Below the pieces are notes generated by a model. It saw nothing but the letters and a program-made list of their open reading frames with translations. It was not told where the DNA came from and searched no databases. A stretch of 64,000 nucleotides of DNA from Candidatus Staskawiczbacteria bacterium (GTDB taxonomy: Bacteria > Patescibacteriota > Minisyncoccia > Minisyncoccales > Staskawiczbacteraceae): positions 1,299 through 65,298 of the forward strand of contig JAPLYZ010000012.1 of the NCBI GenBank assembly GCA_026395295.1, in the 5' to 3' direction. This document shows positions 14,520 to 55,310 of this stretch, piece after piece. The position numbers and the translations under genes were made by a program. The stretch's first letter is position 1. Every line of letters begins with the position of its first letter.

Positions 14520-14531
14520 GTATTACGCCTC

Positions 14532-14563
14532 GGTAAAAACTACGCCATGGCGTAGTTTTTACC
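14532..14563. repeat. perfect 32-nt palindrome upstream of the isc promoter
   Basis: ggtaaaaactacgcc|atggcgtagtttttacc, perfectly self-complementary around a central ccatgg. Confidence 0.85.
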
Positions 14564-14570
14564 ACGGGTG

Positions 14571-20311: not shown

Positions 20312-20346
20312 TTTCGTCTCTAATATGATTTTATCGCTAAAATAAT

Positions 20347-20390
20347 CATCGTTGTAATAACTGTGCGACCGCACAATCATTACAACGATG
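20347..20390. repeat. nested hairpin of unknown function
   Basis: The 12-bp stem catcgttgtaat/attacaacgatg encloses a second stem tgtgcg/cgcaca. There is no T-tract. Confidence 0.6.
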
Positions 20391-20413
20391 TATGGAGAAT
20401 ATAAAAGTATAGG

Positions 20414-20461: not shown

Positions 20462-20470
20462 GATAATATA

Positions 20471-20487
20471 TACCTATACCATAGGTA
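20471..20487. promoter_or_regulatory. candidate CsoR operator palindrome
   Basis: tacctat-acc-ataggta inverted repeat, immediately downstream of the -10 and upstream of csoR. Confidence 0.4.
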
Positions 20488-20515: not shown

Positions 20516-20788
20516 ATGATGATTAACAAAAAGAAAACCTTGGTGGGTTTTAAAAAGGCGCATAGTTTGCTGGCTAGAATAATTGATATGACAGAAAAAG
20601 ATGAATATTGCATTGATATTATGCAGCAAAATTTGGCTGTTGTGGGACTTTTGAGGTCGGCTCACGAAATGCTGATGGAAAACCATTTGAACTCTTGTTT
20701 TAAAAATGCTATGGCGTCAAAAAATGAAAGAAAGAAAAAACAAATGACAGAAGAAATTTTGAAAGTGACAAAACTATTCAATAAGTAA
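20516..20788 (+). CDS. csoR: CsoR/RcnR/FrmR family metal-sensing repressor
   Basis: 90-aa all-helical protein with a DUF156 pattern (KKAHSLLARI...DEYCIDIMQQ...H...C). Heads a copper gene cluster. Confidence 0.75.
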   Translation: MMINKKKTLVGFKKAHSLLARIIDMTEKDEYCIDIMQQNLAVVGLLRSAHEMLMENHLNSCFKNAMASKNERKKKQMTEEILKVTKLFNK

Positions 20789-22278: not shown

Positions 22279-22287
22279 GAAACCCTA

Positions 22288-22384
22288 AATCCAAAGTTCA
22301 AATATCAAATCAAATCCAAAGCTCAAATGCGTTTTGAAATTGGGATTTTGAACTTGATTTGAAATTAGAATTTTGAAATTTTAA
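22288..22384. repeat. AT-rich 'tcaaat / atttga' word hairpin
   Basis: The left arm is rich in tcaaat words (22288-22330) and the right arm in their complement atttga/tttgaa (22331-22380). The inverted repeat is imperfect. Confidence 0.65.
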
Positions 22385-25723: not shown

Positions 25724-26232
25724 AAATAAATGATTTTATAAAAAAAGTTCAGTCAAGCAAAAAGAGCGAACTGGACTTGTCTTCTGATGAAGATTTATCA
25801 ATTGCCATAATGAATTTAATTTCCATTGAGGAGCATTTTTTCTTTACCGGAGCTAAAACCGGCAAACCCGAGTATTACGATTTGTTGAGCACTGCCAGAG
25901 AGATGAGAAAAGATTTGCTGAAAAGAATTATTAAAGATTACGAAGGCGAGGTTTGGTGCATTTCAAAACATTTGTTGTCGGCTTCAATGAGATTAATGGA
26001 AGTTGGCACAAAAGCTCAAGGCCAAGGTAGAAAACAAGACGCAGAAGAAATGTTTAAAAAAGCTTACGAATTATACTCTTTGTTTTGGGGAATAAACTTA
26101 AAGCTTGTCAACTTAGGCGACGTAAAAAAAATTGATAACAACCAAATAGACAGGAAAGATACAGATAAAAAGGGGATTATGGGAAAGCTTGGTCAGGTGG
26201 TCCAGTATGTGATTAACTGCTGTAAAGAATAA
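25708..26232 (+). CDS. hypothetical protein
   Basis: 174-aa helical ORF ending in CC-K-E. No family recognised. Confidence 0.45.
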   Translation: MEDNLKINDFIKKVQSSKKSELDLSSDEDLSIAIMNLISIEEHFFFTGAKTGKPEYYDLLSTAREMRKDLLKRIIKDYEGEVWCISKHLLSASMRLMEVGTKAQGQGRKQDAEEMFKKAYELYSLFWGINLKLVNLGDVKKIDNNQIDRKDTDKKGIMGKLGQVVQYVINCCKE

Positions 26233-26240
26233 AAATAATG

Positions 26241-26271
26241 AAAAGCCACCTTTTAATTTAGGTGGTTTTTT
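26241..26271 (+). terminator. intrinsic terminator
   Basis: aaaagccacc-ttttaattta-ggtggtttttt. Confidence 0.7.
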
Positions 26272-26303
26272 GTTAAAGTATAATAATAGATAGAGTTTAT
26301 TAG

Positions 26304-26380
26304 TAAAAACCAGTGGGTTCATATTTCACGCGATAGCGTAGTTTCTGAACCGGCTAAGAAAGTTTAATTTTCAAAAATAT
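26304..26380 (+). promoter_or_regulatory. conserved 77-nt leader, copy 1 (candidate cis-regulatory RNA)
   Basis: taaaaaccagtgggttcatatttcacgcgatagcgtagtttctgaaccggctaagaaagtttaattttcaaaaatat. Outer stem ggttca/tgaacc and inner stem acgc/gcgt. Near-identical to 28143-28220. Confidence 0.55.
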
Positions 26381-28042
26381 ATGAATCAAGAAACTAGAAT
26401 TTGTCAGAATTGCAAAAAGGACTTTGTAATTGAGCCCGAAGATTTTGATTTCTACGAAAAGATAAAGGTCCCTGCGCCTAAATCGTGTGCGTGGTGCAGA
26501 CAGCAGCATAGAATGCTTTTCCGTAATTTTAAAACGCTTTACAAGCGCAACTCCGATCTTTCAGGGCAATCTGTAATTTCTATGTATTCTCCCGAGTCTC
26601 CCTATAAAGTATGGACACACGATGAATGGTGGTCTGACAATTGGGATCCAAAGTCATATGCCAAAAAGTTCGATTTTCAAAAACCATTTTTTGAACAATT
26701 TCATGAGTTGCTTCTTGCTGTCCCGCGGTTTGCAATTATGAATACAAAAAGCGAGAACTGTGAATATTCTAACTTCACAAATGGATCAAAAAATTGCTAT
26801 CTTGTTTTTGGTTGCATTGATGACGAAGAGTGCGCTTATGGTCATATTGTTTGGGAGTCTGAAGACTCTTTTGATAATCTTTATCTACATAAGTCAGAAC
26901 TTTGCTATGAGTCAGTTGATTGCCTGGGTTCTTACCGTTTGTTTTATTGCCAGGAATGCGAAAGTTGTTCAGACAGCATTGGGCTTTTTGACTGTAAGAG
27001 CTGCCAAAATTGCATAGGTTGCGTTGGTTTACGACAAAAATTATATCACATTTTTAATGAGCCAGTTGGAAAGGAAGAGTATGAAAAGTTCGTTAAAGAG
27101 CACCCGTTTACCAACCCTGAAACTGTGTCTTTTATTTTGAAGAAGCAGCGCGAGTTAAGGCAAGCACTGCCGCAACGAAGTTTTTTTGGCTCGCACAATA
27201 ACAATGTTTCCGGCAACCACGTTTACAACGGTAAAAATATGCGCGATTGTTTTGATGTGAAAGGTGGGGAAAACTCCAGGTTTATTTTTACTTCCCGACA
27301 AACTGTCGATTCTTATGATGTCAGTTTTTCGCCGAATATTGAGCTTGTTTATAACTCACTGGCTACATTAAAATCCAATCGCGTTTTTTTCTCGCACCTG
27401 GTTAATGAGTCAAGCGATGTGTATTATTCCGATTGTTGCTTTACATCTCACAATCTTTTCGGTTGCGCCGGTTTGCGAAACGCAGAATATTGTATTTTTA
27501 ACCAGCAATACTCTAAAGAAGAATATGAAGAGCTGGTTCCTCAAATTATTGATCACATGAAAAAAACAAGAGAATATGGAGAATTTTTCCCAATTCGTCT
27601 TTCGCCCTTTGCATATAATGAATCGATTGCCCAAGAATACGCGCCGCTTTCAAAAGAAGAGGCAATAGCAGGGGGCTTTAAATGGGTTGATGATTTGCCA
27701 AGCACCGTGGGCAAGGAAACAATTGAACAGGAAAAACTTCCCAAAAACCCGGATGAGTTTGGCGAAGCGCTTCTTTCGCATATTTTAAAATGCGTAAAAT
27801 GCGGAAGAAACTATCGTCTTATACAAAAAGAAATAAACTTTTATAAACGTATGCGGTTTCCCTTGCCACAAGAATGTTTTAATTGCCGGCACGCAAGAAG
27901 AATGGCCATGCGAAACCCAAGGAATCTTTGGTCAGGAATTTGCGCCAACTGCGGAAAACAAATAGAAACTTCGTATCCGCCGGAAAGTCAAAAAGAGTTT
28001 AAAATTTACTGCGAGGCCTGCTATAACAGCGAGGTCGCATAG
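26381..28042 (+). CDS. cysteine-rich repeat protein, paralog A (zinc-ribbon ends, 12-residue repeat core)
   Basis: 553 aa with no signal peptide. N- and C-terminal CxxC...FY.K...P.P..C..CR...R...RN modules and two repeat blocks, each ending GC.GLR...Y.IFN..(Y)..EEYE. Confidence 0.75.
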   Translation: MNQETRICQNCKKDFVIEPEDFDFYEKIKVPAPKSCAWCRQQHRMLFRNFKTLYKRNSDLSGQSVISMYSPESPYKVWTHDEWWSDNWDPKSYAKKFDFQKPFFEQFHELLLAVPRFAIMNTKSENCEYSNFTNGSKNCYLVFGCIDDEECAYGHIVWESEDSFDNLYLHKSELCYESVDCLGSYRLFYCQECESCSDSIGLFDCKSCQNCIGCVGLRQKLYHIFNEPVGKEEYEKFVKEHPFTNPETVSFILKKQRELRQALPQRSFFGSHNNNVSGNHVYNGKNMRDCFDVKGGENSRFIFTSRQTVDSYDVSFSPNIELVYNSLATLKSNRVFFSHLVNESSDVYYSDCCFTSHNLFGCAGLRNAEYCIFNQQYSKEEYEELVPQIIDHMKKTREYGEFFPIRLSPFAYNESIAQEYAPLSKEEAIAGGFKWVDDLPSTVGKETIEQEKLPKNPDEFGEALLSHILKCVKCGRNYRLIQKEINFYKRMRFPLPQECFNCRHARRMAMRNPRNLWSGICANCGKQIETSYPPESQKEFKIYCEACYNSEVA

Positions 28043-28142
28043 CGTAGCGATATAATCAAGAAGTTGCATAAAAGGCCGAAGTCCCGCCGAAGCTTTAGCG
28101 AAGGCGGACGAAAGTTGCTACAACGCAGAAGTCGCATAAAGA

Positions 28143-28220
28143 TAAAAACCAGTAGGTTCATATTTTACGCGATAGCGTAGTTTCTGAACCCACTAAGAAA
28201 GTTTAATTTTCAAAAATATC
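28143..28220 (+). promoter_or_regulatory. conserved 78-nt leader, copy 2
   Basis: taaaaaccagtaggttcatattttacgcgatagcgtagtttctgaacccactaagaaagtttaattttcaaaaatatc. About 6 differences from copy 1. Confidence 0.55.
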
Positions 28221-29939
28221 ATGAACGCCGAAACTAAAGTTTGCCAAAATTGCAAAAAGGACTTTGTAATAGAGCCCGAGGATTTTGATTTCTACGAAAA
28301 GATAAAGGTTCCCGCGCCAACTTTTTGTTTTCAATGCAGAACAGTACGACGCCTGTCTTTCAGAAACGAACTTTCCCTTTATAAAAGAAAATGTTCTGCT
28401 CCCGGACACAACGAAGAGATGATTTCTGCATTTTCTCCAGAAAAAAATATGGTTGTCTATGATAACAAATATTGGTGGAGCGACCAGTGGGACCCCATGG
28501 ATTTTGGCAGGGATTATGATTTTTCAAAAACATTTTTTGAGCAATGGCGAGATTTCCGCAACAAATTCCCTTTTCAAAGCGTTTCTAACTCGCATAACGT
28601 GAACAGCGACTATTGTAATGTAGCCGATTACAGCAAAGATTGCTACTTGGTATCTGGTGGTTTTAAGAATGAGAAAGTCCTTTATTCAAACAGAGCAGAG
28701 GGTGACAAAGATTCCGCAGACTTATATGTGGCCCATGACAGCGAGCTTTGCTACGATAATGTCCTTTGTTCCGATTCTTATCACGTGTTTTACAGCCTCC
28801 GTTGCACCAATTGTACAGATTCTTATTTTCTTTATGATTGCCGAAACTGCTCTAATTGTTTTGGTTGCAGCAATCTAAGAAGTAAAAATTGTTATATCTT
28901 TAATCAGCCTTATACAAAAGAAGAATACTCCCAAAAAATAAAAGAGTTTAATCTTTCCAGCTTCTCGTCAGTCCAAAATTTGAAAAAGGAATTTGAAAAA
29001 ATTTACAAAAAGTCTGTTCACAGATATGCCAATATCTTAAAATCCGACAGGTCAACGGGAGATAATTTAGAAAATACTAAAAATTGCAAGTCGTGTTTTG
29101 ATATAAAAGAGGCTGAAGAAGGAAAATATAACCACTGGGGCGGTTTGCAAACAAAAGATTTCTACGATAGTGGACCGGGCACTGGTGTTGGGGCTGAATT
29201 ACTGTACGAAACTTTTGATACCGGAGTTCAGTGCTCAAGAAATTTTTTCACCAGCGTTGTTTACAGCTCGCGAGACGTCTATTATTCTTTCAATTGCTAT
29301 GATTGCTCTGATCTTTTTGGTTGTATTGGTCTGCGCAGTAAGCAATCTTGTATTTTTAACAAACAATATTCTAAAGAAGAATACAAAGCTCTGAAAGATA
29401 AGATAATTGAACATATGAACAGCATGCCATATGTGGATAAAAAAGGTCTGGTATATAAATTCGGAGAATTTTTTCCCGCAGAACTCTCGCCTTTTGCTTA
29501 CAACGAAACCGTGGCGCAGGATTATTTCCCGCTAAACAGAGACCAGGCTATTAAAGAAGGATATAATTGGCGTGATGCTGAAAATAAGAATTACAAAATT
29601 ACCATAAATGCAGAAGATCTGCCAGACGACATAAAGGATGTTGACGACTCCATCTCAAACGAGATAATTGGATGCGCGCACCATGGTAAATGCAATGATG
29701 TCTGTTCAGCGGCTTTCAGAATAATTTCACAGGAATTTCAGTTTTACAAGAAGTTGGGCATCCCTTTGCCCAGATATTGTTTTGGTTGCCGGCATGCTGC
29801 GCGATTACGTTTGCGCAATCCTATGAAATTATGGGACCGCCAGTGCGCAAAATGCGGGAGGGAAATTAAAACATCGTATGCTCCTGACCGCCCGGAAATT
29901 GTTTACTGCGAAAGCTGCTATAATCAAGAAGTGGCGTAA
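28221..29939 (+). CDS. cysteine-rich repeat protein, paralog B
   Basis: 572 aa with the same architecture as 26381-28042. The first ~33 codons are nearly identical at the DNA level; the rest has diverged. Confidence 0.75.
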   Translation: MNAETKVCQNCKKDFVIEPEDFDFYEKIKVPAPTFCFQCRTVRRLSFRNELSLYKRKCSAPGHNEEMISAFSPEKNMVVYDNKYWWSDQWDPMDFGRDYDFSKTFFEQWRDFRNKFPFQSVSNSHNVNSDYCNVADYSKDCYLVSGGFKNEKVLYSNRAEGDKDSADLYVAHDSELCYDNVLCSDSYHVFYSLRCTNCTDSYFLYDCRNCSNCFGCSNLRSKNCYIFNQPYTKEEYSQKIKEFNLSSFSSVQNLKKEFEKIYKKSVHRYANILKSDRSTGDNLENTKNCKSCFDIKEAEEGKYNHWGGLQTKDFYDSGPGTGVGAELLYETFDTGVQCSRNFFTSVVYSSRDVYYSFNCYDCSDLFGCIGLRSKQSCIFNKQYSKEEYKALKDKIIEHMNSMPYVDKKGLVYKFGEFFPAELSPFAYNETVAQDYFPLNRDQAIKEGYNWRDAENKNYKITINAEDLPDDIKDVDDSISNEIIGCAHHGKCNDVCSAAFRIISQEFQFYKKLGIPLPRYCFGCRHAARLRLRNPMKLWDRQCAKCGREIKTSYAPDRPEIVYCESCYNQEVA

Positions 29940-29940
29940 A

Positions 29941-29981
29941 CCCCGTTAGAAATAGCTCGCACAGTGTGATTTCTAACGGGG
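29941..29981 (+). terminator. 13-bp GC-rich hairpin after paralog B (terminator or palindromic element)
   Basis: ccccgttagaaat...atttctaacgggg with a 15-nt loop and a weak T-tract. Confidence 0.5.
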
Positions 29982-31352: not shown

Positions 31353-31390
31353 ATCTTACAAAACCTCAAACGTTTTAGGTTTTGTAAGAT
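31353..31390. promoter_or_regulatory. 38-nt palindrome (candidate operator) overlapping a TATAAT upstream of 31426
   Basis: atcttacaaaacct-caaacgtttt-aggttttgtaagat, a 14-bp perfect stem. TATAAT at 31349-31354. Confidence 0.5.
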
Positions 31391-31425: not shown

Positions 31426-31953
31426 ATGAAAATATCTGTTACTGATAAATTTCTCTGGGATGTTTATAGTTTTCTTGAGAGTGCAAATAGCGCGGCAAAT
31501 TTTATGTTTAAGGCGCCGACGATGAGGAATTGGCTGCCTGGAGAAAAAAATCCGGTTTTTGAAAAATATAGGAAGGAGAAAGGTAGGAGAGAATTTAGTA
31601 ACCTTATTTATTATTTGAAAAGGAAAGGATATATAAAAGCAAAAAATTTAGAGGGTAAACAGGGTATGTTGTTAACAAAGCAAGGGATAGACAAAGCATT
31701 CACCACCAGCTTTAAACTGGGGAAGGGGAAAAAGAGAAAAGACGGTAAGTGGGCAATGCTGATTTTTGATATGCCAAAAAGACGAAGAAAAGAGAGGGAC
31801 TTATTAAGAAGCGTTCTATGCAATTTGGGATATAAGATGTTTCAACAAAGCGTTTGGATGACTCCATATGATGTTTCTGACAAAACAGAAAAGTTACTTC
31901 AAAGATATTCATTGGATAAATATGTTAGGATATTTATTATAGAAGAATTATAA
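31426..31953 (+). CDS. putative wHTH regulator (PaaX-like, with a Cas2-like ferredoxin-fold segment)
   Basis: LIYYLKRKGYIKAKNLEGKQGMLLTKQG (wHTH-like), then WAMLIFDMPKRRRKERDLLRSVLCNLGYKMFQQSVWMTP. Assignment from memory, low certainty. Confidence 0.4.
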   Translation: MKISVTDKFLWDVYSFLESANSAANFMFKAPTMRNWLPGEKNPVFEKYRKEKGRREFSNLIYYLKRKGYIKAKNLEGKQGMLLTKQGIDKAFTTSFKLGKGKKRKDGKWAMLIFDMPKRRRKERDLLRSVLCNLGYKMFQQSVWMTPYDVSDKTEKLLQRYSLDKYVRIFIIEEL

Positions 31954-31955
31954 CT

Positions 31956-31993
31956 ATCTTACAAAACCTCAAACGTTTGGTAATTTGTAAGAT
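31956..31993. promoter_or_regulatory. second, degenerate copy of the 38-nt palindrome
   Basis: atcttacaaaacct-caaacgtttg-gtaatttgtaagat, 3 nt after the stop of 31426-31953. Confidence 0.5.
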
Positions 31994-49586: not shown

Positions 49587-49704
49587 TTTATGCTCGTAAC
49601 AAAAAGATGTCACTTGTTATCGCTATCGCGAATACAACTGCATTCTAGTTTATATCAATCATTTCAAATTGATTTTAATTTTCAAATTTTAAATTCTAAA
49701 TTTT

Positions 49705-52215: not shown

Positions 52216-52230
52216 AAGCAAACATTAAAA

Positions 52231-52303
52231 ATTTCAAATTTCTAATTTCAAATTTCTAATCAATTTCAAATTGATTTCAAATTTCAAATTTCTAATTTCA
52301 AAT
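52231..52303. repeat. AT-rich caaattt-type repeat leader of tuf (23-mer direct repeat)
   Basis: atttcaaatttctaatttcaaat occurs exactly at 52231-52253 and 52281-52303, flanking tcaatttcaaattga. Confidence 0.8.
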
Positions 52304-52310
52304 TATCGCT

Positions 52311-54644: not shown

Positions 54645-55274
54645 ATGAAATATGCAGTTTACAATCAAGAAGGAGCAGAACTGGAAAAGATAACCTTGCC
54701 CAAGGAAATTTTTGATGTAAAGTTCAATGCTGATTTAGTCCACCAGATTTCAGTCTCTTTGTCGGCCAACAAACGCCAAATTTCAGCCCACACCAAAAAC
54801 CGGGGCGAGGTTGCCGGCGGAGGCAAAAAACCGTGGAGGCAGAAAGGAACAGGCAGATCGAGGCATGGGTCAATTCGCTCTCCATTATGGAAGGGCGGGG
54901 GAATTACTCACGGTCCAAGAGCGGAAAGAATTTTTGAAAAAGAGGTTCCTAAAAAAATGAGAAGAAAAGCCTTGTTTATGGTGTTGAGCCAGAAAGCAAA
55001 GGATAACCAATTGGTGGTTCTGGATAAAATACAGCTTGAAAAAGGAAAAACAAAAGAAATGGCAGGTTCCCTTGCCAAATTACCATGCAAACAGAACAGC
55101 ACATTAATTGCATTGCCAAATTACGATAAGAAGATATTTTTAGCTTCAAGAAATATAAAAAAGACATTCATTGAAGATGCAAGAAATTTAAATGTTTTAG
55201 ATTTATTGAATACAAAATATTTATTACTGACAAAAGAGAGCATTATGACTTTAAAAAATACTTTTTTAAAGTAA
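54645..55274 (+). CDS. rplD: 50S ribosomal protein L4
   Basis: GGGKKPWRQKGTGRSRHGSIRSPLWKGGG. Confidence 0.9.
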   Translation: MKYAVYNQEGAELEKITLPKEIFDVKFNADLVHQISVSLSANKRQISAHTKNRGEVAGGGKKPWRQKGTGRSRHGSIRSPLWKGGGITHGPRAERIFEKEVPKKMRRKALFMVLSQKAKDNQLVVLDKIQLEKGKTKEMAGSLAKLPCKQNSTLIALPNYDKKIFLASRNIKKTFIEDARNLNVLDLLNTKYLLLTKESIMTLKNTFLK

Positions 55275-55310
55275 TTTCAAATTAAAAATTTCAAATTTCA
55301 AATTTATAGT

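Follow-up and report, generated by a model that had tools for sequence, protein, structure and literature searches.

A palindromic leader shared by two cysteine-rich paralogs in Candidatus Staskawiczbacteria, a candidate operator related to palindromes that flank PaaX-like regulator genes

The operator of Escherichia coli PaaX is TGATTC-N27-GAATCA (PMC9493321), a wide dyad with 6-bp arms about three helical turns apart. A site of this layout (6-bp inverted arms about 24-27 bp apart), GGTTCA-N24-TGAACC, lies directly upstream of each of two adjacent genes for cysteine-rich proteins, here called A and B, in a genome of Candidatus Staskawiczbacteria (Patescibacteriota; assembly GCA_026395295.1). 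The stretch analysed comprises 64,000 nucleotides (contig JAPLYZ010000012.1, positions 1,299 to 65,298 of the forward strand) and is referred to as the window; positions are counted from its first letter. The site resembles the PaaX operator in its arms and their spacing and, putatively, in overlapping a promoter; it differs by an extra conserved centre, TACGC-N4-GCGTA. Is it a site on DNA, or part of a regulatory RNA, as an earlier note on this DNA had proposed beside gene conversion? We hold with moderate confidence that it is a DNA operator, which together with a near-leaderless promoter co-regulates A and B.

The DNA alignment of A and B contains a single block of near-identity, positions 26304-26479 against 28143-28319 (about 175 bases), outside which the two are about 50% identical. 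The block consists of a leader (copy A, 26304-26380, 77 nt; copy B, 28143-28220, 78 nt; both plus strand) and the first 33 codons (26381-26479 and 28221-28319, plus strand), which encode the N-terminal treble-clef zinc ribbon CQNCKKDFVIEPEDFDFYEKIKVPAP. Leader A is made up of a 7-nt 5' flank, a 46-nt dyad and a 24-nt A/T-rich tail that runs up to the ATG. The dyads, which are the proposed operators, are at 26311-26356 and 28150-28195; outer arms GGTTCA/TGAACC (26316-26351 in copy A) enclose the core CACGC-GATA-GCGTA in A and TACGC-GATA-GCGTA in B. The 36-nt core GGTTCA...ACGC-GATA-GCGT...TGAACC has exactly two occurrences in the window, with none expected. Differences between the leaders amount to four substitutions (26315 G/A, 26327 C/T, 26352 G/C and 26353 G/A) and a 1-nt indel, an extra C directly before the ATG of gene B, so that the near-identity described in the earlier note stands, its count of about six being slightly high. 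No substitution separates the two tails (26357-26380, plus strand, AAGAAAGTTTAATTTTCAAAAATAT; 28196-28220 in copy B). The first 99 coding nt are nearly alike as well, as had been observed, with 13 differences: six within the 18 nt of codons 2-7, and seven in codons 8-33, every one a synonymous third position. The divergence of the gene bodies is likewise confirmed, the full-length proteins being 44% identical (242/550).

The non-coding part of the block is thus several-fold less diverged than the synonymous sites next to it, with 4 substitutions in 77 nt of leader against 7 in 26 third positions and 6 in the 18 nt of codons 2-7 (Fisher p about 0.01, even with five leader differences counted; the neutral estimate assumes that the whole block represents a single event). 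The leader is therefore probably under purifying selection. All of the substitutions lie outside the paired arms, loop, 5' flank and tail. Selection had been proposed earlier, to act on an RNA structure; it is the selection that finds support here, and not an attenuator, riboswitch or sensor RNA.

How did one 5' end come to be common to two genes that otherwise differ so much? Clear orthologs of A in other genomes are 57-86% identical to A, and the best match of B in the same relative is 51%; with A and B 44% identical, their split must be ancient, and the shared block is not a leftover of a recent whole-gene duplication. The motif CQNCKKDFVIEPEDFDFYEKIKVPAP is kept in all paralogs, and protein constraint therefore explains much of the DNA similarity in the coding part. 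In the N-terminal core, A and B agree at 26 of 27 residues. The corresponding figure for 75 A orthologs compared with B is 11-24 of 27, and the closest A orthologs match A itself at only 16-22; A and B also have several minority residues in common there. At the residues identical in A and B, 21 of 29 codons in the block are identical too, against 13.5 +/- 2.3 expected from per-residue-type rates in the (saturated) gene body (P about 0.0007). This codon-identity test replaced a Nei-Gojobori estimate of synonymous divergence for the 33-codon block (pS 0.5), which is misleading, as nearly all of the codons are two-fold degenerate.

Traces of past recombination persist in the A-B spacer in the form of two relics of paralog C-termini, ..YNQEVA* at 28049-28071 and ESCYNAEVA* at 28110-28139 (both plus strand), the second of which has its stop codon 3 nt before leader B. 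They imply that an older and longer tandem array may have collapsed by recombination at conserved termini. We conclude that recombination among array members probably placed one 5' end, leader and 33 codons together, onto the other gene; the event appears to be old, synonymous sites being roughly half saturated. A promoter-operator cassette would in this way have become common to two ancient paralogs, and its non-coding part would have been held almost unchanged by selection since then. Localised gene conversion, one of the two explanations first offered for the repeat, thus gains support at the protein level (26/27 vs 24/27 or fewer) and at the codon level (21 vs 13.5). With exchange of the 5' ends and selection on the leader both supported, the further suggestion that A and B are co-regulated through this segment is plausible.

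For a leader RNA, the earlier note had looked to conservation upstream of orthologs. Seven A-ortholog loci (L001, L004, L009, L011, L012, L014 and L052; 63-86% identity) have no such leader upstream, nor do any of the five loci found by a search of genome contigs with protein A. A covariance model of the dyad has no match in six of the seven, L052 having been left out of the model search. What precedes the orthologs are unrelated regions, including a 5-nt spacer, an ArsR gene and a PBP gene, and the L052 gene is truncated at its 5' end. With none of the seven loci carrying it, the leader is not an ancestral feature of the family. The truncated gene of L052 (2995-4266) is the closest A ortholog, at 86% identity; its first ~135 residues or so are missing, and its start is preceded by a short palindrome (GATAGACGTCGGACGTCTATC) and by a TATAAT box. 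The truncation is a further sign which suggests that 5' ends in the cysteine-rich family turn over quickly.

Where else, then, does the dyad occur? A scan of metagenome contigs with the pattern GGTTCA-N5-7-ACGC-N4-GCGT-N5-7-TGAACC found the same dyad in the low-GC contigs L025, L027 (twice), L030 and L033, and, in the form of perfect 36-nt palindromes, in L018/L028, L021/L024 and L029, whose GC content is about 50%. None of these adjoins a gene of the cysteine-rich family. The dyads of L027, L033 and L029 adjoin genes for proteins of 177-179 amino acids with the Cas2-like PaaX_M domain, homologous to the product of a gene in the window (31426-31953). These small proteins, here termed mini-PaaX, form a subfamily of 611 homologs, mainly from Parcubacteria. 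Matches in high-GC metagenome contigs (L015-L017, L019, L020, L022, L026, L031, L032 and L034-L036) were set aside as probably coding or chance, and the two matches in viral contigs are chance, both being non-palindromic and in coding DNA of GC-rich phages.

Five further mini-PaaX loci (L040, L041, L045, L047 and L049) were chosen by protein homology alone; L040 is probably part of the genome that also encodes an A ortholog of 81% identity. In L040, L041, L045 and L047 the gene is bracketed by palindromes centred on TACGC-TATN-GCGTA, situated 40-75 nt before the ATG and 0-25 nt past the stop codon; in L047 the centre of the upstream palindrome has diverged, and the TACGC core is found only in the downstream copy. 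L049 has an equal palindrome-gene-palindrome layout with a different dyad centre (it was the only match of a strict palindrome-pair search, whose criteria were too strict). A downstream copy is present in L033 too. Dyads with the TACGC core therefore flank mini-PaaX genes in L027, L033, L029, L040, L041, L045 and L047. The outer arms vary by lineage (GGTTCAT, AGTTCAT, GTCGTGAAAAG, CTCAGTAAAAAG and ATATCATAATT) yet remain complementary. In an alignment of 18 sequences, 84% of pair cells are paired, compared with 68% for shuffled sequences and about 35% for slid partners, and 15 of 20 dyad pairs have changed on both sides, an outcome that a DNA palindrome predicts as well as RNA pairing does.

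The link to the window was established in the reverse direction with a covariance model, R2, built from seven sites that had been found via mini-PaaX protein homology only. Its top four matches in the window are leader B (E = 2.8e-6), 14525-14570 (1.8e-5), 20346-20391 (4.7e-4) and leader A (7e-4), and the next has E = 0.25. As R2 recovers the leaders, the leader hairpin is a member of the palindrome family that flanks mini-PaaX genes and is not private to the cysteine-rich genes.

Mini-PaaX proteins match Pfam PaaX_M at E = 1e-20 to 1e-23. An AlphaFold model (pLDDT 78) consists of a winged helix (winged helix-turn-helix, wHTH), a linker helix and a ferredoxin-like domain, and its best matches in the PDB are E. 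coli PaaX (8a39, E = 3e-4) and Rv0674. The PaaX_C domain has no match in these proteins, which end after the Cas2-like domain (175-182 aa). Within that domain (P0207 residues 97-133) the aspartate of an FDIP motif, D106, is invariant in the alignments, as are D97, R115, R119, Q131 and S133. The FDIP aspartate resembles the catalytic motif of Cas2 strand beta-1, and the domain may retain some nuclease or metal-binding activity.

The remaining two R2 matches in the window also lie upstream of genes. The third family dyad, at 14532-14563, is a perfect 32-nt palindrome, GGTAAAAACTACGCCATGGCGTAGTTTTTACC, with the TACGC-N4-GCGTA core; 7 nt downstream of it lies a canonical promoter, TTGACA-17-TATACT, which belongs to an operon for Fe-S assembly (Rrf2-IscS-IscU). 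A weaker member, a nested 44-nt palindrome at 20347-20390, is found upstream of a csoR/copper operon, and in contig L030, too, the dyad lies upstream of a csoR-HMA operon. Of the four window sites, two thus precede the cysteine-rich zinc-ribbon genes A and B, one the Rrf2-IscS-IscU operon and one the csoR/copper cluster. This hints at targets linked by metals or thiols, though the sites are few. The csoR gene is at 20516-20788, and the copper cluster runs on to 24762 with genes for an HMA-DsbD-cupredoxin protein, a DUF1858-like protein and a P-type ATPase. A CsoR-type box, ATACCTATACCATAGGTA, is present at 20470-20487, between the csoR promoter and its ATG; with this canonical TACC..GGTA box of its own for csoR, the TACGC core as a CsoR operator was ruled out.

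What might the dyad do at these positions? At mini-PaaX genes a -10 box, either TG-extended or TATAAT, lies 3-14 nt past the end of the upstream dyad, and only 5-12 nt separate it from the ATG. Because the boxes are downstream of the dyads and so close to the start codon, these dyads are probably untranscribed and the mRNAs probably leaderless. Transcription is predicted to start about 42-46 bp downstream of the dyad centre, and the same distance is obtained for leaders A and B if TTTAAT/TAATTT in the tail (about 26365-26372) is the -10 box. A weak -10 would then be part of the 24-nt tail, and the transcript would be almost leaderless, with a very short 5' untranslated region (UTR). Boxes of the TATAAT or TG-extended type 5-12 nt before the ATG were seen in L040, L045, L047, L049, L009 and L052, at regulator or paralog genes, and this suggests that leaderless or near-leaderless mRNAs may be common in these Parcubacteria. 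We located no published account of leaderless mRNAs in Patescibacteria.

We propose that the 46-bp dyad is a DNA site with a TACGC-N4-GCGTA core and GGTTCA/TGAACC arms 24 bp apart. Such dyads flank, and presumably autoregulate, PaaX-like regulators of about 179 amino acids in Parcubacteria, and a regulator of mini-PaaX type encoded outside the window would bind those of A and B. It would control both genes together, and possibly the isc and copper operons too. Binding of the regulator, the place of the transcription start and the direction of regulation are what we infer from this arrangement. The palindrome-gene-palindrome layout is also found with regulators of other families, and twice a gene of the cysteine-rich family follows. 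In L009, an ArsR-family gene is flanked by its own palindrome (2387-2420 and 2700-2726) and precedes the A ortholog; in L001, an HTH_17 gene is likewise flanked (about 168-185 and 413-430) and precedes a cysteine-rich family gene. This suggests that the cysteine-rich family is under different small transcription factors in different genomes.

Several observations weigh against an operator, and some of them argue for a dyad that acts at the RNA level: a hairpin located in the 5' UTR of A and between the cistrons of A and B, which would serve in RNA processing or stability or be bound by a protein. We consider this unlikely, for reasons that are best set out together with its merits. The nested stem-loop drawn in the earlier note is indeed predicted, and the fold is both stable (-19.6 kcal/mol) and significant relative to shuffled sequences (z = -3.4 and -4.8 for the two leaders). 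Complementarity is kept across lineages with double-sided changes, and several family members, 36-46 nt long, are palindromes without a mismatch, with arms that vary by lineage yet remain complementary; such long perfect palindromes exceed typical operator needs and fit intrastrand pairing. Mismatches in the sense orientation are G.T in 18 cases and A.C in 6-7 (p about 0.02-0.04, and about 0.02 for 18 vs 6, uncorrected for composition or non-independence of the sequences), an excess which hints at pairing in the sense RNA. The proposed -10 in the tail is weak and was missed by a consensus scan, a TATAAT at 26279 could put dyad A inside a transcript, and dyad B may be transcribed, as there is no terminator between A and B. 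The downstream copies follow the stop codon of the regulator gene by 0-25 nt and not the promoter of the next gene, and are therefore transcribed; the same hairpin at the 3' ends of mini-PaaX mRNAs might perhaps be bound by the Cas2/VapD-like domain. Also difficult for an operator are the pattern-scan members L024 and L028, which are between convergent genes, and the regulator itself: the window has no 179-aa mini-PaaX gene, only the paralog at 31426 with its different palindrome. Against the hairpin, the upstream copies, directly followed by -10 boxes that are 5-12 nt from the ATG, are outside those mRNAs, the core is conserved and the arms are variable, the best fold match of the partner protein is a DNA-binding repressor, and non-wobble mismatches make up 49 of the 360 pair cells. 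No A ortholog examined has the element upstream, and Rfam has no match for it: only tRNAs reached the gathering threshold, and nothing relevant appeared in E-value mode on 26200-28400. An attenuator or terminator was ruled out, for the stem in the leaders continues into GGCTAAGAAAG with no U-tract, and a terminator scan did not list it. The bases flanking the stem do keep partial pairing, as had been noted (AGT/GCT in one copy, AGT/ACT in the other), although the change is one-sided, from T.G to T-A, and not compensatory. An attenuator, riboswitch or sensor RNA, as first envisaged, is thus not supported, in view of A orthologs of 63-86% identity that have no leader, of the Rfam result and of a dyad family that flanks PaaX-like genes near -10 boxes.

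Could a selfish or cassette-like unit (palindrome, mini-PaaX, palindrome) instead be the source of the palindromes, as its ends or as copies dispersed from it, with the leader copies being dispersed elements that by chance carry a promoter? The same palindrome occurs on either side of each mini-PaaX gene examined and co-varies with lineage, and the neighbourhood of the gene differs between genomes; there are solitary intergenic copies, some between convergent genes, and the Cas2-like FDIP aspartate is invariant. We nevertheless regard such a unit as very unlikely. Copies are few (one or two per type in 64 kb, with four family matches in the window, and only the two flanking ones per 20-kb locus), no transposase or integrase fold is seen and a repressor is the best fold match, and the similar flanking of ArsR and HTH_17 regulators suggests a general operator design. 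The identical tail and distance to the ATG in both window copies, moreover, fit one duplication better than two insertions. An integron attC site was rejected on the order of its motifs, GTT../..AAC being wrong for the attC layout; no integrase was seen among the neighbouring genes, in which no search aimed at integrases was made. Equally improbable is a leader without function, a recent neutral tract of gene conversion or duplication that has not yet diverged. Recombination between paralogs has clearly been active, as the spacer relics, the 5'-truncated ortholog of L052 and the excess of N-terminal codon identity attest. A neutral tract would have to stop exactly at the ATG, beside the most diverged codons (2-7, 6/18 nt) and without 5' homology, and a later conversion of the leader only is unlikely on the same grounds. 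The dyad is also independently conserved in other genomes and recognised by R2, and all four substitutions spare the arms, loop and tail. A DNA operator with its promoter, co-regulating A and B, therefore remains the reading that we favour.

A more elaborate possibility combines these elements. Taken jointly, they may represent an undescribed module of Parcubacteria, in which a half-size relative of PaaX (wHTH and Cas2-like domain, with the Cas2 aspartate kept) is always bracketed by 36-46-nt palindromes, and further copies wire distant genes (the two cysteine-rich genes, isc and csoR) into one regulon, suggesting a circuit of metal or thiol homeostasis. This we put forward tentatively, and with more doubt than trust. 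In a stronger form, the Cas2/VapD-like domain may recognise an extruded hairpin, either a DNA cruciform or RNA, and not the plain duplex. No published account was located of the pairing of mini-PaaX with palindromes, of PaaX in Patescibacteria or of a Cas2-like PaaX.

The window's own paralog of mini-PaaX (31426-31953, plus strand) encodes 175 amino acids with wHTH and Cas2-like PaaX_M. It is bracketed by palindromes at 31355-31388 and 31958-31991 (CTTACAAAACC..GGTTTTGTAAG) that differ from the TACGC dyads, and the upstream one sits just 5' of a TGATATAAT -10 box.

Genes A (26381-28042; 553 aa, 30 Cys) and B (28221-29939; 572 aa, 32 Cys) are both on the plus strand. Zinc ribbons are present at both termini of A, and the two proteins have weak Pfam treble-clef zinc-finger matches at both ends. 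In BLASTP, the C-terminal zinc-ribbon region of A and B (about 60 aa) can be aligned to the N-terminal part of family members at 30-45% identity, and the two proteins therefore carry an internal duplication of the terminal module. The family of A has more than 6000 matches, is restricted to Patescibacteria and is always annotated as hypothetical; no solved structure is related to it. In the closest relatives the family occurs in tandem arrays of at least six paralogs, with spacers of only 5 nt. An intrinsic terminator of the upstream gene, read from the sequence, is located just 5' of leader A (26241-26271, plus strand). A terminator-like hairpin follows B (29941-29981, plus strand) and no comparable hairpin follows A, so that A and B may be co-transcribed. 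That their start codons lack a Shine-Dalgarno sequence was correctly observed in the earlier note; it is no special feature of these genes, since almost all genes of the window lack one, and with this being the rule genome-wide the absence is uninformative. Many genes of the window are preceded by A/T-rich repeats of the AATTTCAAATTT type (e.g. 52230-52304, 49660-49700, 55270-55305 and 22287-22380), to which the leader tail (TTTAATTTTCAAAAATAT) is similar.

To our knowledge, almost nothing is known about transcriptional regulation in Patescibacteria, the candidate phyla radiation (CPR). The present findings provide a concrete pairing of a regulator family, mini-PaaX, with a palindrome at all mini-PaaX loci examined and in several lineages. 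They also suggest a first candidate regulon, which includes a wholly uncharacterised cysteine-rich family of more than 6000 homologs. Recombination at a conserved motif in the N-terminal coding part, it appears, can carry a promoter-operator cassette from one ancient paralog to another and so bring both under common control. There is a caution here as well: what looks like an 'RNA hairpin' in a leader, significant and covarying, may just as well be an operator on DNA. The pairing of mini-PaaX and palindrome would be that of a transcription factor with its operator, and represents no new category.

How does the system compare with those already described? Mini-PaaX shares with PaaX the fold of wHTH and Cas2-like (PaaX_M) domains. 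It differs in its half size (about 179 aa), in having no C-terminal domain and in the copies of the site on either side of its gene; none of the proposed targets is a paa gene, and binding is predicted here. Leader RNAs such as riboswitches and attenuators resemble the window element in its position directly 5' of a start codon, its stable nested stem-loop and its conserved complementarity. Unlike them, it belongs to no Rfam family, is not conserved before orthologs and has no terminator/anti-terminator logic, and the same dyad is found upstream of -10 boxes and past the stops of unrelated genes. Partial gene conversion of tandem paralogs (tufA/tufB, 5' conversion in arrays) likewise homogenises a short tract and leaves recombination relics at conserved termini; the A/B tract is old, with synonymous sites about half saturated, and its non-coding part is better kept than the coding one. 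As in REP/RAYT (TnpA-REP) systems, mini-PaaX is bracketed by its own palindromic repeat, which has extra solitary intergenic copies and co-varies with the protein lineage, but there is no HUH transposase, copies are very few and they are positioned at promoters. The autoregulated 12-2-12 repressors of the ArsR/SmtB type belong to another protein family; the mini-PaaX dyad is far longer (36-46 bp) than theirs, and the window cassette is apart from its presumed regulator gene. Both have a palindrome that lies at the regulator's own promoter and at that of the gene after it, and it is an ArsR with exactly such a layout that precedes the A ortholog in L009.

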